Shown here in pieces: positions 35,514-55,118 of a stretch of DNA of 64,000 nucleotides; position 1 is the stretch's first letter; each line of letters starts with the position of its first letter. The notes beneath the pieces are model-generated. The model was not told where the DNA came from. It did not search any database and saw nothing but the letters and a program-made list of their open reading frames with translations. The translations under genes were made by a program, and so were the position numbers. Origin of the DNA: Naegleria gruberi (Eukaryota); NCBI GenBank assembly GCA_000004985.1, contig GG738873.1; one strand, 5' to 3'.

Positions 35514-38500
35514 ATGAAAAAGAGTAGAATAATGCTTCAGGATGAGGATGAATACTCCTCCGAATTGGTTCTAGAGGAAATTCCCATTCAGCAAGTGGGT
35601 GCTCCTCAGAAAATGTATAGTACAACAACAATGATTGGAACATCAACAAATAATCAACATCATCATCAGCATAATCATCAACATGATAATAGTAGCAGTA
35701 ACATTGGTAACCATAGTAATATCAATAATAATAATAATAATTATAGTGGAATATTGCAGAGGAAGGAAAATCTTGTTGCATCTCATCATCAAATAGTAAC
35801 ATCTAATTTAATAGAAAATCAATCACAGATGCAGCAAATTCGCACTGTCCATGTCCATGATGAGGCCAGGAATGAAGATTTTTGTGGAAATTCCATCAAG
35901 ACGACCAAGTATGAATTCTGGAACTTTATACCAAAGAATTTGTTTGAACAATTTCATAGATTTGCTAATTGTTGTAAGTTGTTTGATATTTCGAATTTTG
36001 GAGTTGTGAATGGAAATAGATTTCATGGCAATGGCCTTATTGCAGACAATTCCTGGGTTGTCACCAACTGGACGATGGACCTCTTTTGTGCCATTGAGTG
36101 TTGTCTTATTGTGCACAATGATAAAGGATGCCTATGAGGATATAAACAGAAGGATTTCTGATAGAGAAACCAATAATCGAGTGGCACATGTGCTTAGGAA
36201 TGGAGTTTTTGTGGATGTTCCCTGGAAGAGTGTCAAGACAGGAGACGTCATTAAGGTGAATAATATGGAACAATTTCCGTGTGATATATTAATTTATTCT
36301 ATATGCCCAATGGAGAAGAAATCTGGAGAGAATTTATGCTATGTGGAAACTTCACAATTGGATGGGTAGGTATCTCAAAATAATCGTTCTAATTAATCTG
36401 TTTATTATTCACAGTGAAACAAATTTAAAGATTAGAATTGCAAATGCAGAAACGAGCCGATTTACATCACCACTAGATTTTGAAAATAAGAGAATGAAAA
36501 TTGAATGTGAAATGGCAAATAACAGACTGTACAAATTTGAGGGAACATTGACAATGGAAAATGGAAAGAAAATCTCCCTCTCTCCAGACAATATTTGTTT
36601 AAGAGTAAGTTTTAATGAAATTTCTCGAGCATGATAAAATTTCTTTAGGGGTCAAGTTTAAAGAATACTCAGAATATCATAGGCGTTGCTGTATATACTG
36701 GAAATGATACCAAATTTATGAGAAATACCAAGTAAGTACTTTATTAAGTTTATGAACTAACAGAGAAAATTAAGGAAAACTCCACACAAAATGAGCAATA
36801 TTGAACGCCTAACAAATAGATTGGTGTTGATGGTTTTAGGAGTTCAATTATTTCTTGTGACTTGTTGTGATATTGGATTAATGATTTGGACTAGTGAGCA
36901 ACAACCAAAAGCTTGGTACATTTTCCCAAAAGCAAGGGAACATGACATTGGATTTATATTATTTGGTGGATTTAAAGGATTCTTTACAATTTTGATTTTA
37001 TTGACCAACTTGATACCTGTTTCGTTGTACGTTTCGATTGAAGCAACTAAATTGATTCAAGGGTCAATGATTAGTAAGGATCTAGAAATGTACCACGAAG
37101 AAACAGATACAAGAGCAAATGTAAGAAGTTGTGCTCTTAATGAGGATTTAGGACAAATTAATTACATTTTTTCTGATAAGACTGGAACACTGACAGAGAA
37201 TAAGATGAATTGTAAGTTTTATATTATTAACAACAATCAAAATATGTTTACATTCTAAATTTTTTAACATGACAGTATTGAAAATATCAATTAATGGAAA
37301 GGTGTACGATATAACAGATCCACAAATAACAAATGGAAATTGGAGACAAACAGAGGATTCCAATGAAATTTTACAATTCCTATTGTTACTTTCACTCTGT
37401 CATACAGTTATTCCTGAGAGGTCTTCCAAGGAAACGAACGGAGCCCAAGACAATACCATCTACCATTCATCCTCTCCTGATGAGATTGCTCTAGTTAAGG
37501 CAGCCAAGTTTTTAGGAGTAGAATTTCTCGATAAGACCACACACCAAGCCAATGTGAAAATACTCGAAGAATTCACATTGAAATATGATTTATTGGATTG
37601 TATTGAATTTTCAAGTGAAAGAAAGAGGCAATCTGTCATTCTCAGAAATGAGAGAGGTGAAATTATTCTCTACACAAAGGGAGCTGACTCTGTCATGTTT
37701 CCCTTACTTAATCCAGAATCCAATCACTTGCCTAGTACTTTACAACATTTGGATAGATTCGGTTCTACTGGTTTGAGAACGTTGGTGTGCGCAATGAGAG
37801 TACTGGATGAAAATGAATATCAACTATGGCATGAAGAGTATGAAAAAGCTAAAACTTCCCTCGACAATAGAAAGGAAAAGATTGAATCAGTTGCCACAAA
37901 AATTGAAAAGGATCTTTTATTATGTGGAGCTACTGGCATTGAGGATAAGTTACAAGAAGGAGTTGCCGATACTATTTACAATTTGAGATTGGCTGGTATT
38001 AATATTTGGGTATTGACTGGTGACAAAATGGAAACAGCCATCAATATTGGCTATTCGTGTGAACTTTTGGGCTCATCTATGAAATTATTAAAGGTAGAAG
38101 GAGAAACCTATGATGCAGTGGAACGACATCTTACTCACTGCCTTGCACAATTGAAAGAAAGTACTTTTTCCAAATTGGATAATAGCGATGTCATTTCTTC
38201 AGAGTATGCCTTAGTAATAGATGGAGAAAAGATGGAATTGGTTTTTTCGCATCAGAATTTGATAGATTTATTCCTTCATGTCTCAATCAAGTGTAAATCA
38301 GTAATTTGTTGTAGAGTTTCACCAAAGCAAAAGGCAGATATTGTCTTGCTAATCAAGAATAATGTTGAAAGTGTCACTCTGGCAATTGGAGATGGAGCTA
38401 ATGATTGCAACATGATTCAAAGTGCTCATGTTGGCATTGGTATTTCAGGATTGGAAGGATTAGCAGCCGTCAATGTTTCAGATTATTCAATTGCCCAATT

Positions 38501-39493
38501 TAGATTTTTGAAAAAACTTTTACTCGTTCATGGAAGATGGAGCTATAGAAGAGTTTCAAAATTGGTGCTCTATTGCTTCTATAAGAATAGTGTACTCTTC
38601 CTGACTCAGATGTGGTATATTTTCTTCAATGGATTTTCTGGAACTAGTATTCACGACAAGTGGAATATCACCATGTATAATTTACTCTTTTCAGGAATAC
38701 CTATTGTTGTATTTGCTGTTTTGGATAGAGATGTTTCTTCAAAGAGTGCTAACATGTTTCCTGAACTCTACTTCCAAGGAAGAAAGAATAGATTTGTAAG
38801 TAATTTATATTGTTGATAATTAATCCCAATTAGTTCAATTGGAAAGTTTTTATTTCATGGATTGTTAATTCAATTTTCCATTCACTTGTTTGCTTTTTCG
38901 TTCCATACCTGGCCTTTGCAGAGAGTAAATTTCCTGATGGACAAGATATTGATGCACAAACAATTGGTATAGTGATGTATACCTGTGCTGTTCTTGTCAT
39001 TACAATGAAACTGGCCATTGAAACCTCAACTTGGACCTGGATTAACTTTTTAACATATGGTCTCAGTATTGCTTTATGGCCTATTTATTTATTTTTCTAC
39101 GGATCTACCTTCCAAATGTTTAGAAGAAGAGCTCCTATTGTGAATGAGTCATATGACATTTCTCAAAGGTATAGAATTATATTTACTGCTCAATTTTGGT
39201 TGGTTGTTCTATTAGTGGTAATTACTTGTTGCATTAGGGATATTTTCTGGAAGTGGTGGATTAGATATTTCCAAACTAAAAAATTATACTACCTTGTACA
39301 GAGTTTGCAACACGAATCCATTACTAGAGATCACATTGCTCACGAAATGCCATTCATTGATAAGGAAGAAATGAGGCCACCAACTATCTCCCTTAAATCG
39401 AGATCATTATCAACTAGATTATCATATTTTAAGGAGAAGGTATTTTCGTACTTTGGTACAGTTTCAAGAAAAAAGTATTCTGAATTTGAGTAG
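35514..39493 (+). CDS. P4-type ATPase (phospholipid flippase, Drs2/ATP8-like), 7 exons, with an Asn/His-rich N-terminal extension
   Basis: Exon structure: join(35514..35973, 36020..36365, 36415..36604, 36649..36731, 36775..37211, 37276..38795, 38834..39493). The introns are 46, 49, 44, 43, 64 and 38 nt, all GTAAGT/GTAGGT...AG, and each restores a P4-ATPase consensus. The restored segments are FHRFANC|YFMAMALLQTIPGLSPTGRWT, ETSQLDG|ETNLKIR, NICLR|GSSLKNTQNIIGVAVYTGNDTKFMRNTK|KTPHKMSNIERLTN, ICSDKTGTLTENKMN and KNRF|FNWKVFISW. The motifs DKTGTLT, TGDKMETAINIG and GDGANDCNMIQSAHVGIGISG are present. Confidence 0.9.
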
Positions 39494-39660: not shown

Positions 39661-42600
39661 TTACTCACTGTCATCCATTTCATCTTCTTTTTCCATAATA
39701 ACATCAAAAACATTATCCTCCTCATTCAATTTCTTCTTCCTCTTAATGAATTTTATATCCTTTCTCTCTCTGTGAACACGATAATTCGAATAATAGCCCG
39801 TACTATTCCTATTCTTCATCATCATGTTAGCAAAATAAATTAAATTTCCTTTAAAATAATAGGTTTTCAAGTCTGGATTTCTTTTATCACGTAGATACGC
39901 TCTGTATTTTCTTTCAAGTATGTCACTAGCTTCTTCGTATATTATTGTTGGAGTCTCATTCGATTCTGAGTAAGACCAAATATACTTGCATAATTGCTTT
40001 TTCAAGTGTTTTGGATTTGTATAGGCATCTTGAAAGAAATTTCTTGTATGTGGATGGAAACTTTCATTTGTGTGAATGAATAAATTGCAATATAACTTAC
40101 CTTCCAATTGATTGAGTTGTTGGATTAATGATAATCCATTCAATGTGAGATGCAAGGTTACTGATTGGATTTTTTGTATTCATAATATGTTCAATATCAT
40201 TCAATGAGAATTCAAAATATGTTTTTCTTTTGTTCTTTTTCTGATAGTCAGCAACTGTCTGAAGTTTACGGTAGTAATTGGAGGTTGAATTTGCTCGTAC
40301 AGGTACTTGTCTATAATCATGATCTTCAGAAGGGTCAATCATCTTCATTGTTTTCTCCAAATTGTTTTTACCTCCAATAGATTTAAATACAGCATTCCTT
40401 CTTCTATTATTCTTATAACCATGGATAGTTAGTAGAATTCTTGCTAGTCCAGTAACTTGCTTAATGTTTGCAATCTTCTTCTCCCTTGTTGTAGAGTGTC
40501 TTCTTGGGAAATACAAACTAATCCTATCATAAAGAACACTGTTAGCTAATTTCTTGTCATCGTACCCTGGACATCCTATTCTGAAGCCCCTTAAAGCATA
40601 CTTAACAAGCCTTAACTCAAAAGTTGTAGATTGACGATCAACATCAACCAAATTACATCTTGTAGAAAGAGCAACAACAGCTCTTGGTAAGCAGTAAAGT
40701 TGATTTCCATCAAATCTAATGACATTAAATTGAATTTTCACAACATGTAAAGAAACTTACCCAACACAACAGGTGGGAATGTCGAACCCCATAAGTACCT
40801 CTGCAGGTGATTTGTATAAACGAGTAATTACTTGTACTGCAGGCAAGTTATCAAAATTGAATGTAATGGCATGCTGAGTTCTTGTAATGACAATATTTCC
40901 ATCATTTAAATTCGTTTTGAACAGTTTGTAAAGATAGATTATTTTTTCTTCTGCTTGCTTTTCAGTAATGCCATAAAGAAACAAGTCGAGATCACTATTT
41001 TTCCACTGAGGTGATTTTCTATAGTAGGATTCAATATTAGAATATACTCTCTTTGGTGGTGGGGGCCTTGTACCCAAGTATGGTTCAGTTCTACTACTAT
41101 TAGTTTTAAAAGAGAACTCCTCATCTGAACTAGCTGTAAAATAATCTTCATCTATTTTTTCTGAATTACTGTCATCGCTAGACTCACAGTCATCAAAATC
41201 CCAATAGATTCTTTCTCTTGGTTTTGGCTGTGAAGCATCGAACCAATCAAGAGGAATCTCTAATAAACAAGCCAGAATGCCACCACCTAATTTGTCTATT
41301 ATGAGAAAAATTGAAGAAGAATGAATACATACCTGCAGCAAATACATTACTCCAATCCATATCCTTGAATAAATCTCCTGAAAAGACATTGAACTGAGAG
41401 AAGAAAACTTCTCTCGATTTGCAAACCTTAGGTATAGGTGGAGCTTGCAATCCAGAAAACTCATTCACCAACTCGGAACAATCAATAGGACTTTCAAAAT
41501 CAAACAAGAGAGGAACATTTGGTTCAGTTGGCTCAAACATTTTCCTGGAAATATTCTCGTTGGCAAATACGTTAATCATGTGAAGATAGGGATCATTTAA
41601 AATTGGATTTTCTCTATCAGAGACGAACATTCTCCTCAAGAAATCTTCTTCTTGCTTGATTTTCAAATTATTGGAACCTATATCTTCTACAGGAAATCTT
41701 AAGGGGTCCAAGAAATCGACCAAGGAGTGAATTTTAAATTCAATAGCTTCCTTGTAAATCAACTTTCGTTTAGCAGCATCTTTTGGAATATTGTGAGTTG
41801 TACCATATTGTAAATACTGGAAAATGTGGTGAAATATTTCACCATCTCTGTCAATAAATATTTCACTAGTAATATCTTTCAACTCGGTGAGAATTGATGG
41901 AAAGACACTATCCTTATGAATGAGTAATTTTTCCATGCTGATTGTAAATTTGGTTCCTCTAACATTGAAAATGATAGGAGTCTTTCTAAGTGTAGATTCT
42001 TTTTCTTTTAGAAGTTGATCTTCCCTATTCAATTCCTCCTTCTTTTGCTCTACATAATCTTCCAAGATTTTCTTTTCTTGAATGGTAATGTTTGCAAACT
42101 TGTTCAGCCATTTCTCATCTTGCTCATCTTGATCTGAGCTCATTACATTTCTAATTTCCTTTGTTGTAGTACCTTGTTTGACTACTCCTTCCTCCTCCAA
42201 CTTTTTCAATTCCTTTTGATATTGATTAATGAGTAAGGCAATTCTAGCGCTCAATTTACTAGTTCCAAAAAAGTCAGAATCTCTCAATAACTCTCTCAAA
42301 TGAATAAGTGCACTTTCAGATGCCTCCTCCCACAGACCCACGTAATTAGTAGATCCAGTCCTCAAATGCTCCAACAAGATGGGAAAATAATCAGGATTCA
42401 ACTCGTCCAATACAATAGCATCATGTTCACTCTCTCTATCAATTCCAACACCCGATGACAACATGGTCTTGAGCATATTCTCTCTCTTGTTAATGGTGGC
42501 AAGTGTGGTGATGAACAATTTTCCTCCGACCATCAATTTAATCACTACTTGATCACTATTTTCCAAAATTTCCTTCACAATCTTTTGATGGTGATCACCT

Positions 42601-42977
42601 TGATAGGATGAATCGTCATGTATGGTAGATTTAATTGATGATGACGAAGAATTTGAATTTAAATTATTATTATCACTATTATTATTAATATTGATGTTAG
42701 AAAACTTCTCCAACACTTCCAACTCTCTCCTCCTCAGTTCATTCCTCTCCCGTTCTCTCTCCAGTCCAATCAGTGCATCAATTCTAAACTTTTCCACTTG
42801 TTCCCTCTCCCGAATGTGTTTTGGTGTTTCAATTTCTTCATCATCAGCAGCGGATGATGCGAGTGAGAGCAAACTTTCTTTGGATGTTTCATTGGCGGGA
42901 AAATCTGTAAAGCGTTTTCTTTTGAGTGGTGTTTGTTCTTCTTCTTTAATGTTGGTATTGTTGTTACTGTTGATCAT
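39661..42977 (-). CDS. Protein with two BTB/POZ (KCTD/T1-type) domains and a C-terminal domain with a nucleotidyltransferase-like acidic motif (4 exons)
   Basis: Exon structure: join(42977..41333, 41286..40761, 40715..40101, 40060..39661). The introns are 46, 45 and 40 nt (GTATGT/GTAAGT...TAG/AAG). They restore the frame at NVFAAG|GGILACLL, PTCCVG|FDGNQLY and QSIG|SFHPHT. BTB 1 reads VIKLMVGGKLFITTLATI...DELNPDYFPILLEHLRTG. BTB 2 reads IIFNVRGTKFTISMEKLL...IFHHIFQYLQYG. The C-terminal region carries WKNSDLDLFLYG plus a downstream GFDIPT, a [DE]h[DE]h ... h[DE]h pattern like the polymerase-beta superfamily. The G[GS] element is not evident, so this assignment is tentative. Confidence 0.75.
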
Positions 42978-43405
42978 AGGATGGATTTCAAATATTGTGT
43001 TTTTGATTTTTTTTTGATTTGAAATTCTAATGGAAAGTGGAAGTCATTGATAATGTGTGAATTTTTGTAAAACCTAAAGTTTGGGAACAACAAAACTGTA
43101 GACGAAACTGTACTTTTGATATTCGAAATGCGGGTTGTATGGAGGAATTAAGGAATATTATTCGCATGAATCCTGAAATTATAACTGAGATTGTAATCAT
43201 TGAAAATTCACATTCAAATAGAAAACCATCCCACCAAAAACATGCCAAGATTTCCTTAGCACCATCAAAAATCAACATGAAATACCACAAACAAACTTGA
43301 TTATAATAAAGCACACACCATTACAATCATGCAGCTGTCAAACGTAATGACATTCGACATATCAGAAAGATCACTACTGGCAGGAAACCTCATCATTAAA
43401 AAAAA

Positions 43406-44178
43406 ATGTCCAAAACTTTAATCTCTCTCTTCCTCGTTATTGCTTTTGCTTTGGTTGTTGCATGCGTGGATGTTACTCCTGAAGAATTGAAAGCAATATT
43501 AACCAACGTCCCAAAGGCCAAGGTCACTAACTATGCTCAATACATGAATGATGCCATGGATGAAGGTGATATTGATACCTGTTGTGAAATTGCTGCTTTC
43601 ATTGCTCAAGTAGGTCATGAAAGTGGTGATTTGAATTGGTTTGTTGAATTTGCCTCTGGTTCTGCTTATGAAGGTAGAAAGGATTTGGGTAATACTGTCA
43701 AGGGTGATGGTGTTAGAGTAAGTGTTATCTTTTAACTGTTTGACTCTTTACACTCTATTCAATTATTATCAATATTATTAATGTATTATTAATCAATCGA
43801 ATAATAATATTATAGTATAAGGGTAGAGGTCCAATTCAAATTACTGGTCGTGCTAATTATCGTGCTGCTGGTAAGGCTTTGGGTGTTGATTTGGAAAATA
43901 ATCCACTCCTTGCTCAAGAACCAGTCATTGGTTTCAAGACTGCTGTTTGTAAGTTGTTTTTTCGCTAAATTTCAGTTTGTTGTAATATTAATATTAATAT
44001 CATTATTAATATCTCTCGTTTTAAATAGGGTTCTGGAATACTAGAAGTTTGAACAAGTATGCTGACTGTTCTCAAGCTAACTTTGATATCATTACCAAGA
44101 GAATCAATGGTGGTTTCAATGGTAAGGCTGACAGAGATGCCAAGTTTGCTAAGGCCAAGAAGGTTTTGAAGTGTTAAA
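43406..44178 (+). CDS. Secreted glycoside hydrolase family 19 (chitinase/lysozyme-like) protein, 3 exons
   Basis: Exon structure: join(43406..43717, 43816..43948, 44030..44178). The introns are 98 and 81 nt, GTAAGT...TAG, and about 80% A+T. The signal peptide is [19 protein letters not shown]. The GH19 signatures are [12 protein letters not shown] and, across intron 1, GDGVR|[15 protein letters not shown], then ...TAV|WFWNTR. The protein is 185 aa. Confidence 0.85.
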
Positions 44179-44446
44179 TAAATCATTTTTAATTCTTTCA
44201 AAATAATTGAAAATGCATATCTGTTTCACAAAATGCATTCCATTTCAATCAATTAGGAATTGGAGTTGCATTCTTAATCATAAATGCAAAAACAAACAGC
44301 ATGCATCCAGTTTGGTACATCACACTCTTAATAATTGAGAGTAATTAATCAAGAAGAAATGTTTAATGATGGAAGTAAGGTTCTGCAAACTTTCAATTAA
44401 TTTTTTTTAGTTTTGAAAAAAAGATTTAAAGGCGGGATTAAATAGT

Positions 44447-44827
44447 ATGCAAAAGGTTTTCAAGCGAGTTGAAAAATTCATCTCAACACCCCATTCCGAT
44501 GATGATCGCTCAATGGTGGATACGGTCACTGAGAAATTGTATGAAGAATTGAAAAAGTGTTTGGAAGTGGTGGCGAAAACAAATGGTGATGATGGATTAA
44601 AGTTTGTAAAATTAATGATAATTTCAATGATTGCTCATCAGAGTGGTGATGGAAATAATCAGAAGAATAATAATAGTAATGGAAGGAAGGAATTAATAGG
44701 GAATTTAATGACGGAATTTGTGAAGAATTGTTGTAGGATTGAATTGAGAAGTGTAGGTAAAACACTCTTATTTGATGTGATGATAATATTTGGTTGGTTA
44801 ATAATATTAATTGGAAAAGAGGATTGA
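44447..44827 (+). CDS. Small hypothetical protein with a C-terminal hydrophobic segment (126 aa)
   Basis: The ORF runs from ATG 44447 to TGA 44825-44827. It carries an Asn-rich stretch and ends in LLFDVMIIFGWLIILIGKED. No family was recognised. It may be independent, or part of the downstream large gene through an unresolved splice. Confidence 0.35.
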   Translation: MQKVFKRVEKFISTPHSDDDRSMVDTVTEKLYEELKKCLEVVAKTNGDDGLKFVKLMIISMIAHQSGDGNNQKNNNSNGRKELIGNLMTEFVKNCCRIELRSVGKTLLFDVMIIFGWLIILIGKED

Positions 44828-44976: not shown

Positions 44977-47900
44977 ATGAGTAAGTGAGTTGGAGTTTAA
45001 ATTTATTGACTTGCAAAGTTCCAATTATTTATTATCATTATATGTGTATTTTCAAAATTTAATAGAGACAGATGCGAGTGTAAATATAATTCCAAGAGAT
45101 TTGAAAAGTAGTTTTCAATTGTTGGAACAGTATTGTGAAAAATTTCACAATGCAGAACTGATTAATATATTGTACAAATTAAAAAAAATAGCTGAAGAAC
45201 AAGAGTTGATAGAGTATTCACATTTGACAATTATTGAAACAGCCAAGATGGAGTTAGAGTGGAAGGAAATGAATGACAGGAAATCATCCTCTCAGAGGAA
45301 AATGGAAATACTTTCATCCTTATTTTCCAATGTAAATAGTAATTATTCGGACGATTCATTTGAGGAATTATTTCAAACTTTTGAAAAGATATATAGACAA
45401 GCAATTAGAAAAATAACAAAGAGTCAACCCACGAAAATTAATGAAAATTTGAAAAAGGGAATACTGACATTTGATTTCATTCACAAAATGGCTCAACATT
45501 CCATTCCATTTATCTCGGTAAATCAAGGCGAACTAAATTTATCCAAAGCAGAGGTAAACCTAGAGTTTGAAGAAGAGGATGAGATCAATAATTCTGATTT
45601 TATGACCAATCTCGGTGATACAACTCTACAGGTGTTATCAAATATAGAATCATACGTTGGAACGTCATTTCTCAACTATGAGAAAATATCTCCTGCCATG
45701 AGTGCTCACTTAAAACACAAATTTCTTTCCCAAGTTAGTGAAGCTTTAAAATATGAAAAGGTCAACCCTACACTTGAAAAGACACTTCCCTCAATAAGAG
45801 AGAAAACAGTGAAGAAGATACAGGACTCATTCCATGTCGATCCAACACTGAGCTTTGTTTTTGGAACACCCTCGACCGACAAGGATGGCAAGTTAATTAC
45901 AAATAACAGTAGGAAAAATTTATTCTTAAAGAGAGACGATGTGAACACTTACTTGGAACTAGTGGACAATACCTTTATACAGGAGAATTACTATTCTATT
46001 GAAAATGATTCGATTATTGGAGAAAGCAGTAAGGAAGATTTGCTTGATTGTTGGAGAGCCGAATTCAAAACACGGCAACTCCATAGTATACCAGCAATCC
46101 AAATGAAAGACGTACTCTTCACTTCCTCCTTATTTATGGATCCTTTGAATATTGAAATGCTCATATCCTCGAACCTTGAACCAAAAAATCCAATTCTCCA
46201 ATTAATTCAAGCTCAAAGTATATCAACACATGAGGATTACATTGGAAAATTGAAAGGATTATTCAAATATAACAACTTACAGTGGATGGGAACATATCAT
46301 TCACAGTGCCTACGTGATTTTTTTGGAACTGACTTGATTGATGTTACTAATGTGAATAATGCACGATCTCTCAGCATGTCCATAGATTTGGATAATCTCT
46401 CAAGTATTGCATACTCATTTCTCAAAATCTCTGAAAATCACCGTAGCTTGTGCAATCAGGTATTTGAAGAAAATAATTCGAGCGCTCTATGGAGAGACTT
46501 TTACCTTGATAATTACCAAGTTCTAAACCCTATGAAAGATCTATCAGAATCCATTCTAGAAAATAGTATCCAGCACACAACTTCATTGAGAATTTTAAAA
46601 GAGATTGGAACCCACCAAAGTAATAATGAAGTGAGCAGTAATTGTGATTGGATTTCTCTAATGAAGTCTATAGCCAACAAACTCCATTTTAACAAATCTA
46701 TATTCTGTAACTTTGTGGATGAATTGGATAAAGCAACAGTGAAGTCTAATTTTTTGGAATTATCATCAATAATAATGAAATTCTATTACTCAATTCATCA
46801 AGTAATGACAGAATTAGTTGAGATTTTGCAAACACAATCCATAAGCGAATTATTCATTGTTTTATTGTTAATATCCTCCATTGGAAACAAAACATACTCT
46901 ATTATTGATTTCAGCTTTTCTAATGCGCTGAAATCTCGATATTTTCATACTCGGTTTGTTGAATTGATACTGCATCTGCTGCACCAACAAGATGATGAGT
47001 GCAAATTCCAATCAATAGCTAAGGACATTCAAATGTTATCATTTCTGAATGTATGCTTGATTGGATTTAGAGATGGTCTCTTCCTTTCCAAGATTAAAAT
47101 TGCTAGAGCCATTTCTATGGAACTAATTTCCAATACTCAATCAATCAATAGATCATATTTAGAATCTCCAATTTTAAATATTTGCAAAATACGAATAGGA
47201 AATAATTACATGCTCTCAAATAGAACCACTGCAAGGTTACTAGTTTATAATCACTTGAAAATTGTGAATGAAAAGTCAAAAGAAATGAAATCCATTGAAG
47301 ACAAACTACTTTTGGAAAATATGTTTGTGGAAAGCAAAACTCATGAATCTAAAACTACGAAAAGCGACAAGAACACTTTAAAAGGCGTAAATTTGATATC
47401 CATCAAGGATCAACAAGTTGTGAAAAACTCTTACAAATTTTTGGATGATCAGCTTAAAGAAATTATTCATGAAATGCGACCAAAATCACAAAAAAGTCAC
47501 CAACCGATTCTAAATGATGAGAAGGATGACTTTGAAGACATTCTGGATAGTTTATCATCAGTTTGTGAAGTTATTATTGTACCCTCTGAAGATTCTGAGA
47601 CTCTGACACGCTCTCCATCAAAAGTGAAGAAAATGCTATTGGAATCATTGCCCTCATTACTTTTTGAGATGTTACACACTTTTCCAGACTCTGTAAATCA
47701 TTGGCTTTCCTTCATTGTGCAACAGACCATGTCATTTCTTAAAACTTTAGAGTGTTGTCAAATAATTTCACTCAAATTCAAAATTCATGGAGAAAAGTCT
47801 GTACAATTAACCAGTAGAAAGGTTAGCTTTGTGGACATTTCCATGTTCTTGGCCATGCAATGCGCAAACGCTTTATTTCAAACCATACGGAAGAATATTG

Positions 47901-48859
47901 AACCTTTTAGCAAGATTTTATTCGAAATGTGCCTCATTGTCGAAAACTTTCTCATTCCAGATAATGAAGCCAACAATGCCTCCCAAAACATTCAATCCTT
48001 GAAGGCCAAACTAGAGAAATACGCTCTCACAATCCAAGAAATACTGAAACCAGACTCTCATTACATAATTCAATCAATAAGAAATCAAGTTGGTCAAGAA
48101 GAATTCATTGATATTATCAATCATTTACAAGTGGAAAATGAGGAAGGCCTTTCCCAAATATTGGAACATGAAATATTATCCTTCACCAAACAACACATTA
48201 TACAGGAACGTTTATTGGACTATCACTTGTGTATGAATCAATTTTATGGAGAATATTTGGAAAATATGATTCCTCTTGGTGAAACTATAGAGTATTTGAA
48301 ACTTTCAATATACGAAACAAATATTCCAATGCCAAATCGTCATTATTGGAGAGAACAGCTCTTTTTGAGTTTGGATTTTGAAGAGTACGCAGAAATACTC
48401 CAACAAGTACTTGATAGCTGTCCTAAGGATTTGGATGAGAATGCAGAATCGAGTACATTAATTCTACTCCAACAATTAATTCTCGTGTTGGGTAATTATC
48501 CATTTCACAAGCTACTCACATCTACTGAGAATGATAGTATTCCCTATCTTCATCCGATTATTCATTCGTCAGTGATATCAAAAATTGCCTCTGATCCTCT
48601 CATTCAACAAGAAATTACAAACATGAAACCTTCACTCAAAGTATTGGTGGGAAAGTTATTTGATGCCTTGATTAGAAAGTGTTGTCAAGCCAAAATGGAA
48701 TTCAACATGAACTATATCAAATCTGTCAAGCACGAATTAATCAAATCCTTACATGAATCACACAATTTAGCTGAAAACTATCGTGCATCCAATATGGTTC
48801 TATCAGATAAGTTACACAATTTTCTAATTAAAAACTATTCAAGAGGAGGAGAGGAATAA
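44977..48859 (+). CDS. Large hypothetical protein (~1270 aa), start codon probably split from the body by an intron
   Basis: The long ORF is open from 44990 and ends at TAA 48857-48859, but its first in-frame ATG is only at 45248. The sequence ttattggATGA|gtaagt at 44977-44986 and the acceptor aatttaatag|AG at 45064-65 allow join(44977..44980, 45066..48859). That gives MK|TDASVNIIPRDLKSSFQLLEQ... with an 85-nt AT-rich intron. The protein is largely helical-looking (HEAT/ARM-like). No family was recognised. Confidence 0.65.
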
Positions 48860-51761: not shown

Positions 51762-54700
51762 CTAGTTGGTTGTTGCTTGAGGTTTTTGCATTTCAACATC
51801 TCTGGTCACTGAAACAGTTGAAGCATTGGATGCAGCCTTGTTAGAAGTACACTTCCACAAAACAATAACAACAATCAATGCAATCACCAACACTACAATA
51901 ATTGCAAAACCAACCACTGATGCAATAATTGCTCCAATATCTCCTGGAGTTAACGTAACACCAGTATTATCAGCATTCAAAGCTCCGGTTGCTTGGGCTT
52001 GCAATGGTTCGGGAATGAAGATGTGAGTTGACAATTTGGTGAACATGACTCTTTCCTTCTCAGTTTCAAAGTTTGGATAAATAGGAAGCTTAATCTTCAT
52101 AGTTTGTGGATTTTCGAGGACAACCTTGTGCTTATTAAGAGAAACACTATATGAAAGCATTGGAAGAATGATATTATTCCAGTTGGAGTGTTCTTCTTGT
52201 GTCTTGATACTGTTAATGAACTTGACAAATGAGTTTGCATTTCCAATATAGTGTTGATTGAAAGTATATTGAGCATCATTGACAAGGACACAGAGGTAAA
52301 TATTGTGTTCCTTTGTCAAATCAGAGAATTCCAATTCATCAGTATATTTTCCTTCATTATTGGTAAACTTGATTGAAACAGTAATGTTTTCATTCTTTAG
52401 TTCACTAAAGTGAATAGTTCCAGAGACTGTGTCTTGTAAGTTTCTCATGACAGCCCTAGATTCTACACGCATATAGACGGTTCCTTCCATGAGACCAGTA
52501 TTGGATTGCTTTGAGAAGCCAAAAACATTGGTTCTACTCGACTTGGAAGTGTAGAGACTTTCCAATTTGTTTTCTTCAGACTGCAACTTATAGCCAATAT
52601 AACCTTGAGTAGAATTTTCCATACCAATAACCATACCTAGACTACCGAAAGAGTTTCCTCTGTCTATGGCCAAACCAAATGGTGAAAGAGTTGAGTATTT
52701 GAATGACGTGTCAGCAGTTAAATCTAATTGATAGATTTCTAATGGTTCAATAAGGAGTTCTAATTCTGCAAATGATCCCGACACTTCAAGGTAAATAACC
52801 TTTGGAATGGAATTCAATGAGTTTCCAGTCTTTGACAAGGTGACAGCACTGGTCATGGCAATCATTGATGCAGTACTAAATGATGAGCCAGTCAACATTT
52901 TAATGGTAACATCAGCATTCTTAGGTAAGATTGGTGTTACGACAAATGAATGGAGGGATTGAGAAATTCCAGTATTTGGAACATACATGATAGCAGTTCT
53001 GGATTGAACACCATCAAAGACATGTCTAACAGTCTTACCACTGTTACCCTTATAGACTGGGAAGACAGTAAGTGTAGAATCGCTTCCAGTATAAGTGAGG
53101 AATAATGGGAATGAATTGGCTTTAACTTCCAAAAGATTTCCAACAAGAGTTCCATCATTAAGAGTGAGTTGACCAACTGATAAGCTAAATGACAAATAGT
53201 CTGGAACAATAGAAGGAATATCAATCAAAATGAGACCTGATCTAATCTTTACAGATTTTCCGAATTGAATAGAACTTCTATAATAATTGAAATTGACTGA
53301 AACTTGCTCTGTTTCTTCCTTACTGATAATGACCTTAACAATGTTAGTATTTTCAGCGACAAGATTTTGGAATGGAATTTGAACACTTTCTTGAGAAATT
53401 TCATAAGAAACAGAACCATAAGAAATTTGACATGCAACGGTAAAGCCCAAATTCAAAGTAATGCCATCATAGTAATCAAAGTTATCGGCGGCAATTGAGA
53501 TTTGTCTGGCAACAATTGTTGAATTATCAGTGATAGTTTCAACAATATTCTGCATTTCACTCACATCATAGATATAATCAATAGCCATAGTGTTTTCAAT
53601 GGATCTTCTTGACTTTTTCAAGCAGATACCACACAGTGAGCTAATGGCAGTTTCAGAAACAATTGGAAAGTCGTAAGTATAACCGTCCCATATGGTATAA
53701 TCATACAATTCAATTTCATCAATACCAACTTCACCATCAATACCCCAATAGACATTCATACCAAGTTTACAACCTGATTTTGGATTAGTTTGAGTTTTGA
53801 CATTAATGTATGGATTAATCTTAAAAATAATTGGGAATAATTCATAGAATGTAATATATAGAGTTGGTTCAAGAGTTGCCTTAGCTTGAGTTTGAAGAGA
53901 AAGATATTCACTCACTCTGAGACCACCACTAACTGATCCACTAGTTGTAGTCTTTTTATGGTTTCCCTCAATATATTCAAAACCTGCAGAGCCAGATCTT
54001 GTATAATCGCTTGTAAAGCTGACAGATGCACTGGCCTCCAAGTAGATTTTCAAACCGACTCCCATTCCAATTGCCATCTCAACAGGCAAAGGTCCAACAG
54101 CAAAGGCAGCAGTGTAAAAGTCCTTCTTCTTCATCAACTCAAATTCTCTTTCATATTTGCCTGTGGCCGTAACCTTCAAAGTTGGAAGTGTAACTCTCAA
54201 GGCATAAAAACCAGTACCTCTAGCAGTGTCTAGAATTTCCCATGGCATGTCAGTTTCAATGTATATATAATAACCAGCATAGAAACTAAAGAAACAATTG
54301 GTACATTCAAAGGTAAGGAATGAATAGGACATTGTAACTGACGATTGATCATAGGTAGGAATATTATTTGTGTAGAGAATCTTTCCCTTGCTATCTCTTT
54401 TCACATTCCAACCAATTTCAAATGCCTTATCATTGCTAGCAGAGCCAGAGAATCTTCCATTCTTGGCAACATAACCTAGTGGTCTACTCTTTAATAATTT
54501 GAGTTTTGAAAAGACTTGGAGGAGGGATAATTTACCAGTTTCTAATTGGAAATAAGTAATGCCATTCTCCTTGTTGTAAATCAACTCTGATTTGGTGACT
54601 AATCTGTAGAGAACTTTTTCATCAGTCTCTGCTTGATCATTGAGAGAGTGATCATAACAGGCAAAACTCTTCTTGCTTGAAACAAGCAAATTTCCAACAG

Positions 54701-55118
54701 CAAGATGATTCTTCATCATTTCAACATGATTTGGAACAGAGGCATCTGGTCTAATATACAAAATATTCCTAGTACAACCAATATCCATCACATATGGGTG
54801 ATAGTCAAGATTGTAGGTATCAAAGGCTAAAACAGCATCATACATGAATTGCTCAGAGCTTGGGGTTTCTTCAGTGTAACGAGCATTCCAAGGATTCTTA
54901 GAGGTAAAACGTTGCTGGGCCTTATTAAGATAGGGAATACTTTGAGGATTTCTCTTCGAAATAGATGGTAATGTTCTACCATTCTTGATTCTGAAGAGGA
55001 AATAATCTGAGGGTGTTTCAAAGTTTGGTCGTGTTGTCGTGCTTTCAGCTATTAAGAATCCCACTAAAAAACAAGTTATCCACACAAAGAGGATGGATTT
55101 TAGTAGAAGCCTAATCAT
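51762..55118 (-). CDS. Large type-I membrane protein (1118 aa): signal peptide, ~1040-aa extracellular region, single TM, short cytoplasmic tail
   Basis: The ORF runs from ATG 55118-55116 to TAG 51764-51762. The N-terminus reads MIRLLLKSILFVWITCFLVGFLIAES. The C-terminal TM segment is GAIIASVVGFAIIVVLVIALIVVIVLW, followed by a 30-aa tail. The ectodomain is beta-rich with many N-x-S/T sequons. No family was recognised. Confidence 0.8.
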   Translation of the reverse strand: MIRLLLKSILFVWITCFLVGFLIAESTTTRPNFETPSDYFLFRIKNGRTLPSISKRNPQSIPYLNKAQQRFTSKNPWNARYTEETPSSEQFMYDAVLAFDTYNLDYHPYVMDIGCTRNILYIRPDASVPNHVEMMKNHLAVGNLLVSSKKSFACYDHSLNDQAETDEKVLYRLVTKSELIYNKENGITYFQLETGKLSLLQVFSKLKLLKSRPLGYVAKNGRFSGSASNDKAFEIGWNVKRDSKGKILYTNNIPTYDQSSVTMSYSFLTFECTNCFFSFYAGYYIYIETDMPWEILDTARGTGFYALRVTLPTLKVTATGKYEREFELMKKKDFYTAAFAVGPLPVEMAIGMGVGLKIYLEASASVSFTSDYTRSGSAGFEYIEGNHKKTTTSGSVSGGLRVSEYLSLQTQAKATLEPTLYITFYELFPIIFKINPYINVKTQTNPKSGCKLGMNVYWGIDGEVGIDEIELYDYTIWDGYTYDFPIVSETAISSLCGICLKKSRRSIENTMAIDYIYDVSEMQNIVETITDNSTIVARQISIAADNFDYYDGITLNLGFTVACQISYGSVSYEISQESVQIPFQNLVAENTNIVKVIISKEETEQVSVNFNYYRSSIQFGKSVKIRSGLILIDIPSIVPDYLSFSLSVGQLTLNDGTLVGNLLEVKANSFPLFLTYTGSDSTLTVFPVYKGNSGKTVRHVFDGVQSRTAIMYVPNTGISQSLHSFVVTPILPKNADVTIKMLTGSSFSTASMIAMTSAVTLSKTGNSLNSIPKVIYLEVSGSFAELELLIEPLEIYQLDLTADTSFKYSTLSPFGLAIDRGNSFGSLGMVIGMENSTQGYIGYKLQSEENKLESLYTSKSSRTNVFGFSKQSNTGLMEGTVYMRVESRAVMRNLQDTVSGTIHFSELKNENITVSIKFTNNEGKYTDELEFSDLTKEHNIYLCVLVNDAQYTFNQHYIGNANSFVKFINSIKTQEEHSNWNNIILPMLSYSVSLNKHKVVLENPQTMKIKLPIYPNFETEKERVMFTKLSTHIFIPEPLQAQATGALNADNTGVTLTPGDIGAIIASVVGFAIIVVLVIALIVVIVLWKCTSNKAASNASTVSVTRDVEMQKPQATTN

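Follow-up and report, generated by a model that had tools for sequence, protein, structure and literature searches.

An endolysin-type GH19 gene with spliceosomal introns in Naegleria gruberi and its predicted role as a secreted muramidase

The gene and its genomic setting

The DNA analysed here, called the window below, is a stretch of 64,000 nucleotides of contig GG738873.1 from Naegleria gruberi. On its plus strand, at positions 43406-44177, lies a gene for a protein of glycoside hydrolase family 19 (GH19). An earlier note, made from the letters alone, had described a secreted, intron-containing chitinase/lysozyme-like gene that was probably acquired by horizontal transfer. In our analysis, the gene is a real three-exon gene with canonical introns, and its product, which consists of one GH19 domain of the endolysin type, is probably a small secreted enzyme of bacterial descent, most likely a muramidase (lysozyme).

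Exon 1 (43406-43717, codons 1-104) begins with an ATG that follows a run of A (plus strand, 42900-44700 inspected). It encodes a signal-like segment, Cys59 and Cys60 (43580-43585), a family motif at residues 63-74 and the catalytic residues Glu72 (43619-43621) and Glu81 (43646-43648). Intron 1 (43718-43815, 98 nt, phase 0) separates Arg104 from Tyr105. Exon 2 (43816-43948) supplies codons 105-148 and the first base of Trp149, with a second motif at residues 105-115 and the water-positioning Thr114 (43843-43845). Intron 2 (43949-44028, 80 nt, phase 1) falls inside the Trp149 codon, and exon 3 (44029-44177) runs from the rest of that codon to Cys197. In addition to the substrate-site motifs WFW and INGGxNG, exon 3 contains Cys162 (44067-44069) and the C-terminal Cys197 (44172-44174), and it closes with the stop codon TAA at 44175-44177; the gene end first given, 44178, was one base too far.

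Joined, the exons form a 594-nt coding sequence in one open frame of 197 amino acids. Both introns have the form GTAAGT...TAG, and their guanine-plus-cytosine (GC) content of 19% (intron 1) and 20% (intron 2) compares with 39-41% in the exons, so that the two AT-rich spliceosomal introns stand as first described. When the spliced protein is searched against the whole window with tblastn, it recovers exactly its three exon pieces and no other GH19 copy in the 64 kb.

The same gene, from a close relative, is present on a 1515-bp metagenome contig (ENA ERR1078381, here L004), and a metagenome match is 99% identical to exon 1. Between L004 and the window, the exons differ by one substitution (E26D) and no insertions or deletions in 594 bases; across 953 columns of introns and flanks, there are 38 substitutions and 62 gap columns. 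The four splice sites are all preserved, although 23 of the gap columns lie within intron 2, and intron 1 also tolerates insertions and deletions. Conserved exons set among variable introns and flanks are the pattern that purifying selection on the proposed exons predicts.

The surroundings are those of a eukaryotic chromosome. Directly upstream, on the minus strand, is a gene for a BTB_2-domain protein (39661-42977, identified with Pfam) that is rich in Asn/Ser runs and has a first open frame of 576 amino acids. The open frames that follow on this strand run up to a GTAAGT (at 40755 and 40095), which suggests one multi-exon gene. Further upstream, several intron-split open frames make up a plus-strand gene for a P4-type phospholipid-translocating ATPase (36605-39493), with GTAAGT donors at 36605, 36732, 37212 and 38796. 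Since the open frames of these neighbours end at the same donor, the introns of the GH19 gene are of the local type. Pfam yields no match at E <= 0.001 for two very long open frames, of 1289 amino acids (44990-48859, plus strand) and 1118 amino acids (51762-55118, minus strand). Beside the GH19 gene, no phage genes were found, its neighbours being the BTB_2 and P4-ATPase genes with their introns, and it lacks the lysis cassette, with holin or spanin neighbours, that marks a functional phage endolysin.

Base composition also agrees with the host. The GC content is 34.8% throughout the window; at third codon positions (GC3) it is 0.31 in the GH19 gene and 0.31-0.35 in its neighbours. Codon preferences of the gene correlate with those of the neighbours at r 0.74 (0.83-0.93 for controls, which are longer genes). 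With GC3 equal, T occupies 52% of third codon positions in the GH19 gene versus 36% in five neighbouring genes, a bias for which high expression could be the cause.

Because the family is overwhelmingly bacterial and phage, one might take the gene for bacterial or phage contamination, for a very recent private insertion or for a decaying pseudogene. The introns, the eukaryotic neighbours on either side within 500 bp and the host-like composition speak against all of these, as do the intact frame and active site, the independent allele L004 with its conserved exons, and the paralogues in other heterolobosean genomes. The probability left to such explanations is negligible, and we regard contamination, a pseudogene and a very recent insertion as ruled out; on contamination, the earlier note had reached the same view.

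Family membership and active site

The Pfam profile PF00182 (Glyco_hydro_19) matches residues 53-158 with 73.3 bits (cut-off 25.5, E 3.4e-20), so far above the cut-off that the proposed GH19 membership is secure. The PHROG profiles give E 2.8e-56 for PHROG 181 (‘endolysin’) and E 2.3e-43 for PHROG 9506, and 7724 database homologues are found at E <= 1e-10. Among solved structures, the best match is the endolysin PWe2 (PDB 9ms7, E 8e-35, aligned residues 21-195), followed by the GH19 endolysin of Pseudomonas aeruginosa (9eoi) and by SPN1S (4ok7); plant and Streptomyces chitinases follow at E of about 1e-19 or worse.

The GH19 Engineering Database divides the family into two subfamilies, chitinases (CHIT) and endolysins (ELYS), with catalytic residues E67, E89 and S120 in CHIT and E49, E58 and T130 (SPN1S numbering) in ELYS (PMC8547705). 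In the protein from the window, the alignment shows the triad intact as E72 (in GHESG), E81 and T114 (in GRGPIQIT). E72 and E81 correspond to E49/E58 of SPN1S and E79/E88 of C25GH19B from Corallococcus, and T114 to T130 of ELYS; the residues are conserved in 119 (E72), 121 (E81) and 118 (T114) of 121 aligned sequences. The two glutamates are nine residues apart (E72-x8-E81), as in ELYS, and not about 22 as in chitinases. At the ELYS-specific positions I33, R109 and G118, the protein has I56, R91 (through a Y-x-x-R motif) and G102, and three of four pattern residues is the level of 10 of the 12 characterised endolysins (PMC8547705). For loop 3 of CHIT and its disulfide cysteines C97/C105, the alignment shows no counterpart, and Pfam detects no chitin-binding module in the protein.

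Structure was modelled with AlphaFold2 for a paralogue from N. lovaniensis (P0001) that is 75% identical to the GH19 protein. The model has a predicted local distance difference test score (pLDDT) of 94.4, lower in the N-terminal helix. It superposes best on 9ms7 (template modelling score 0.90, root-mean-square deviation 1.7 A), then on 9eoi and 4ok7, with chitinases behind; through this proxy, the protein would have the bilobal, mostly helical, lysozyme-like GH19 fold. Taken together, the comparisons support placement in the endolysin branch of GH19 and not in the branch of plant and actinobacterial chitinases, so that of the ‘chitinase/lysozyme-like’ description the GH19 part holds and the chitinase part does not.

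The name chitinase nevertheless has a following. The Pfam model itself is titled ‘Chitinase class I’, many database homologues carry the automatic name ‘predicted chitinase’, and a 2026 chitinase survey dealing with Euglenozoa lists GH19 proteins of N. gruberi as chitinases, some with an SH3b domain and possibly derived by lateral transfer (PMC13231604). Such an enzyme might attack the walls of fungal prey or, during encystment or excystment, a cyst wall that contains chitin, and the copy in the window does lack a peptidoglycan-binding module. The close spacing of the catalytic glutamates and the missing loop-3 disulfide pattern run counter to this idea, endolysin profiles and structures score far above chitinase ones, and the nearest characterised relatives cleave peptidoglycan, not chitin. 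A chitinase is thus an unlikely reading, and ‘predicted muramidase’ would be the better label. Of the two activities originally proposed, bacteriolytic and fungal-wall-degrading, ELYS membership and the characterised relatives fit the first much better than the second.

Relatives, secretion features and origin

The most similar sequences come from other heterolobosean amoebae: N. lovaniensis has one homologue at 75% identity and three more paralogues at 61-68%, and Willaertia magna has three paralogues at 64-65%. Unnamed metagenome sequences appear at various identities. Next are Myxococcota (Cystobacter, Corallococcus, Hyalangium, Archangium) and Blastocatellia at 57-62%, bdelloid rotifers at 55-56%, and phages, of which the best (Myxococcus phage Mx1, Achromobacter phage 2-1) reach 50-51%. 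Outside the eukaryotes, nothing found is closer than the lysozymes of Myxococcota, which match about 88% of the protein at 58-62% identity. Although N. lovaniensis has four paralogues, the best 120 matches of each search include no protein from N. gruberi or N. fowleri; the explanation is either that the database lacks those proteomes or that the two species have a smaller family. The Naegleria pangenome paper credits N. lovaniensis with the most lysozyme genes and lists lysozymes without family detail.

An SH3b domain (PF08239) stands at the N-terminus of several paralogues from N. lovaniensis and Willaertia. At one N. lovaniensis locus (PYSW02000023.1, L008 5001-7677), two SH3b-GH19 genes stand in tandem about 500 bp apart; they differ in some intron positions, which points to local duplication followed by intron change. 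A protist in JGI sample 3300062347 (L002, L003, L012), with a GC content of 34.8-34.9%, nearly equal to that of the window, has at least three intronless GH19 paralogues, one with SH3b, on contigs of 49-321 kb with clearly eukaryotic genes. On a 163-kb Logan contig with phage genes (L013 8001-9100), a GH19 endolysin gene adjoins a convergent peptide deformylase gene, and the same arrangement is seen in Myxococcus phage Mx1 (L009 398-1286).

The N-terminus of the protein looks like a signal peptide, as had been proposed. Residues 4-19 form a hydrophobic segment (Kyte-Doolittle value about 3.0), and the phage endolysin 9ms7 aligns only from residue 21 onward. The predicted signal peptide would span residues 1-19 or 1-20 (43406-43465), and we infer cleavage after Ala19 or Cys20. 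The hydrophobic segment is missing from the closest named bacterial homologues inspected and from the aligned phage endolysins. The residues VVAC (17-20) could be read as the relic of a bacterial lipobox, that is, of a signal peptide that arrived with the gene. We rejected this idea because the N-terminal extensions are non-hydrophobic or absent in the closest named bacterial homologues inspected and the heterolobosean paralogues do not conserve Cys at that site.

The hydrophobic N-terminus tends to occur together with particular cysteines. Among 187 aligned homologues, Cys59 and Cys197 are both present in 84 sequences, both absent in 101 and discordant in two; Cys60 and Cys162 are both present in nine and both absent in 178, with no discordant case, and this second pair is confined to the Naegleria/Willaertia set plus one unnamed sequence. 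Such co-occurrence suggests two disulfides, and Cys59-Cys197 and Cys60-Cys162 probably form bonds that stabilise the enzyme outside the cytosol. Where it could be assessed, a hydrophobic N-terminus was found in 53 of 59 homologues with the Cys59/Cys197 pair versus 7 of 70 without it. Every sequence with this pair whose context can be checked lies in eukaryotic DNA: the carriers are N. lovaniensis, Willaertia, several bdelloid rotifers and three large contigs from one JGI sample, which also encode GRIM-19, NPC1, Arf, leishmanolysin and diacylglycerol kinase. The pair is absent from every named bacterial or phage sequence checked; one homologue (P0092), on an Mx1-like phage contig, has the C-terminal cysteine only.

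Intron positions bear on the age of the gene. Exact exon mapping shows that the phase-0 intron at Arg|Tyr-Lys-Gly-Arg-Gly is common to the gene in the window and to the N. lovaniensis paralogues P0001, P0003 and P0004. Other positions (AFL|AQ, GRK|DLGN, GxD|LEN) are common to subsets of the family, and that of intron 2 is unique among the homologues examined. A contig from ENA (ERZ27315067, L005 1-669) encodes a protein 82% identical to the one studied here; it has an intron of about 230 nt (GTATGT...TAG) in the Trp78 codon, the seventh intron position in the family, and none at the Arg|Tyr site. The Willaertia paralogue P0002 is intronless. When the window (30-56 kb) is compared by tblastx with the 21-kb locus of P0001, only the GH19 gene matches, which makes P0001 a close paralogue or a non-syntenic orthologue. 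An intron shared across paralogues, a base composition fully adapted to the host and several copies of the gene in each of two genera all point to an old acquisition, one that was neither recent nor private to the N. gruberi genome.

We built two neighbour-joining trees, of 119 and 187 sequences (174 columns, 200 bootstraps). Rooted on Mx1, the bacterial sequences form a basal grade, with weak support, and the sequences with the Cys59/Cys197 pair fall into one large derived cluster together with two phage and some unnamed sequences. The basal position of the bacteria favours transfer from bacteria to eukaryotes. Resolution in both trees is poor, so judgements on when and how often transfer took place draw mainly on shared rare characters. 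As for the horizontal acquisition claimed at the outset, its origin is best read as bacterial, given that the nearest non-eukaryotic relatives are bacterial, and the multi-copy family and shared intron count against a recent or private event; the trees favour that direction.

The earlier note had also said that nesting within a vertically inherited eukaryotic clade would weaken the case for transfer, and this applies in part, in that sequences with a signal peptide and the cysteine pair occur in bdelloid rotifers and a protist as well as in Heterolobosea. That distribution, with the single large cluster in the Mx1-rooted tree, is what vertical inheritance from a eukaryotic ancestor would leave after loss in most lineages, if bacterial similarity then reflected conservation or transfer from eukaryotes to bacteria. 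Yet the named eukaryotes among the best matches are Heterolobosea and bdelloid rotifers only, bacterial and phage homologues number in the thousands, the identity to Myxococcota is as high as 58-62%, and the same rooting, for all its weak support, makes the eukaryotic sequences derived and the bacteria basal. We judge vertical descent improbable. Bdelloid rotifers are known for massive uptake of foreign genes. It is conceivable, though we would not call it likely, that one Myxococcota-like gene founded a so far undescribed eukaryotic group of GH19 lysozymes of the endolysin type, with a signal peptide and the Cys59-Cys197 staple as its marks (and Cys60-Cys162 in Naegleria and Willaertia), and that this group then spread from eukaryote to eukaryote among heterolobosean amoebae, bdelloid rotifers and other protists. 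If so, this would contradict the 2021 statement that confines GH19 endolysins to phages and their hosts.

Under the favoured reading, bacterial descent, we infer the following history. The gene would derive from a bacterial, ultimately phage-related, GH19 lysozyme gene that entered eukaryotes before Naegleria diversified, probably before the split between Naegleria and Willaertia. It would then have gained a signal peptide, cysteines and introns, taken on the codon composition of its host and been duplicated, with some copies becoming fused to SH3b.

Predicted function and comparison with known GH19 systems

Bacterivorous protists need enzymes that open peptidoglycan, and the host, a heterolobosean amoeba of the Naegleria type, feeds on bacteria. 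The substrate and cellular site of action proposed here are drawn by analogy. After removal of a signal peptide of about 20 residues, the enzyme would follow the secretory or phagolysosomal pathway and cut the glycan strands of peptidoglycan, thereby opening the walls of ingested bacteria, or of nearby ones if it is released. As in phage and myxobacterial GH19 lysozymes, Glu72 would serve as the general acid and Glu81 as the general base, and Thr114 would hold the attacking water. C25GH19B of Corallococcus silvisoli, which belongs to the myxobacterial group nearest to the protein from the window, has the predicted dyad E79/E88, a pH optimum of 4.5-5 and, according to its authors, a signal peptide (PMC9098779, PMC10875029). 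The GH19 proteins of Trichomonas, laterally acquired and provided with signal peptides, with or without SH3b, have been shown by high-performance liquid chromatography-mass spectrometry to be muramidases without chitinase activity (PMC12612818).

A muramidase need not be digestive: it could be an antibacterial weapon released into the medium or a means to control intracellular bacteria. A signal peptide indicates entry into the secretory pathway only, a lysosomal sorting signal was not identified, disulfide-type cysteines suit extracellular life, and the myxobacterial relatives are extracellular enzymes of predation. Nothing speaks directly against such a role, but the pH optimum of the myxobacterial relative, being acidic, suits a phagolysosome, and Naegleria takes up its food by phagocytosis. 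We give a purely non-digestive role a low probability, and digestive and released antibacterial roles are not exclusive.

Several points weigh against the conclusion that this is a secreted, endolysin-type muramidase of bacterial descent. Since some GH19 enzymes cleave chitin as well as peptidoglycan, the substrate is assigned by homology. The copy in the window is without the wall-binding SH3b domain, and forms of the Trichomonas enzyme that lack SH3b might not hydrolyse peptidoglycan, according to the authors (PMC12612818). The literature searched contains no enzymatic, expression or localisation data on this protein or on any heterolobosean homologue. The fourth ELYS position (L173, with L/Y173 in the pattern) is ambiguous, as a one-residue shift decides whether L156 or N157 occupies it. 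The structural evidence comes from the paralogue P0001 and not from the protein itself, and the signal peptide is called from hydropathy and comparison with homologues. In the trees, the eight heterolobosean sequences group with bootstrap values of 33-41% only, and the set with the cysteine pair is not cleanly split off, since two phage sequences fall among it.

That eukaryotes acquire lysozymes laterally is well established, and the gene is not conceptually new: it represents a known kind, antibacterial glycosidases that bacterivorous protists have obtained by lateral transfer. What it adds is that Heterolobosea join the eukaryotes that appear to have drawn an enzyme from the GH19 endolysin pool of bacteria and phages, for which the experimental demonstration has so far come from Trichomonas only. 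Findings on GH19 endolysins are thereby extended to Heterolobosea and rotifers, and the default ‘chitinase’ label of Naegleria GH19 genes is corrected. The family also suggests how simply a cytoplasmic or phage enzyme may be adapted to the eukaryotic secretory pathway, with a signal peptide and one or two disulfide staples. With a small mature protein of about 177 residues and an acid-active myxobacterial relative, the enzyme could be a candidate antibacterial.

Four known systems can be compared with the gene. Plant and actinobacterial GH19 chitinases (classes I, II and IV) share the Pfam family and a 26-residue core with two Glu and Ser/Thr. Their wide glutamate spacing, loop-3 disulfide, extra loops and frequent CBM18 or CBM5/12 modules are all absent from the protein studied here.

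Phage GH19 endolysins, represented by SPN1S (4ok7), PaGH19Lys of a P. aeruginosa prophage (9eoi), PWe2 from a soil metagenome (9ms7) and the enzyme of Mx1, have the same fold, triad and ELYS pattern. PWe2, for which a literature search under ‘PWe2 endolysin’ found nothing, aligns end to end with the mature protein. Unlike these enzymes, the product of the gene has no lysis cassette to accompany it, and its action would not start from within the cell. The peptidoglycan-binding insert of three helices found in SPN1S is missing, and a predicted signal peptide and extra cysteines are present.

Closer still are the clade II GH19 lysozymes of myxobacteria (C25GH19B; LlpM of Myxococcus xanthus), the closest of which likewise consist of a single GH19 domain of about 200 amino acids, with the E-x8-E dyad and the Thr. 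They too are used by a predator of bacteria. Of the residues docked to N-acetylglucosamine-N-acetylmuramic acid (GlcNAc-MurNAc) in C25GH19B, those at Y88, R91, D93, L94, I111, Q112, T114, N118 and N175 would be identical in the protein from the window and those at I113 and F150 conservatively changed, if the positions are mapped with a constant offset. The myxobacterial genes differ in being intronless and without Cys59, Cys60, Cys162 and Cys197. In the Corallococcus and Cystobacter homologues that were retrieved, the N-terminus is rich in Ser and not hydrophobic, and the accessory domains in this group are LysM or PG_binding_1, whereas the heterolobosean paralogues have SH3b.

The GH19 enzymes of Trichomonas and other metamonads offer a parallel in biology: they are eukaryotic, carry signal peptides, are of bacterial origin, belong to a bacterivorous protist and keep both glutamates (PMC12612818). 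No Trichomonas or metamonad sequence is among the best 120 matches of either search, so the Trichomonas enzymes are more distant than those of Myxococcota and may stem from a separate acquisition. Like the heterolobosean family, that of Trichomonas comprises short forms and forms fused to SH3b. Among eukaryotic GH19 proteins, SH3b was said to be unique to Trichomonas (PMC12612818); the SH3b-GH19 paralogues of Heterolobosea show that such fusions also exist outside it. The gene in the window itself has the profile of the Trichomonas type: a predicted signal peptide, a GH19 domain with both glutamates, a eukaryotic genome and bacterial nearest relatives.

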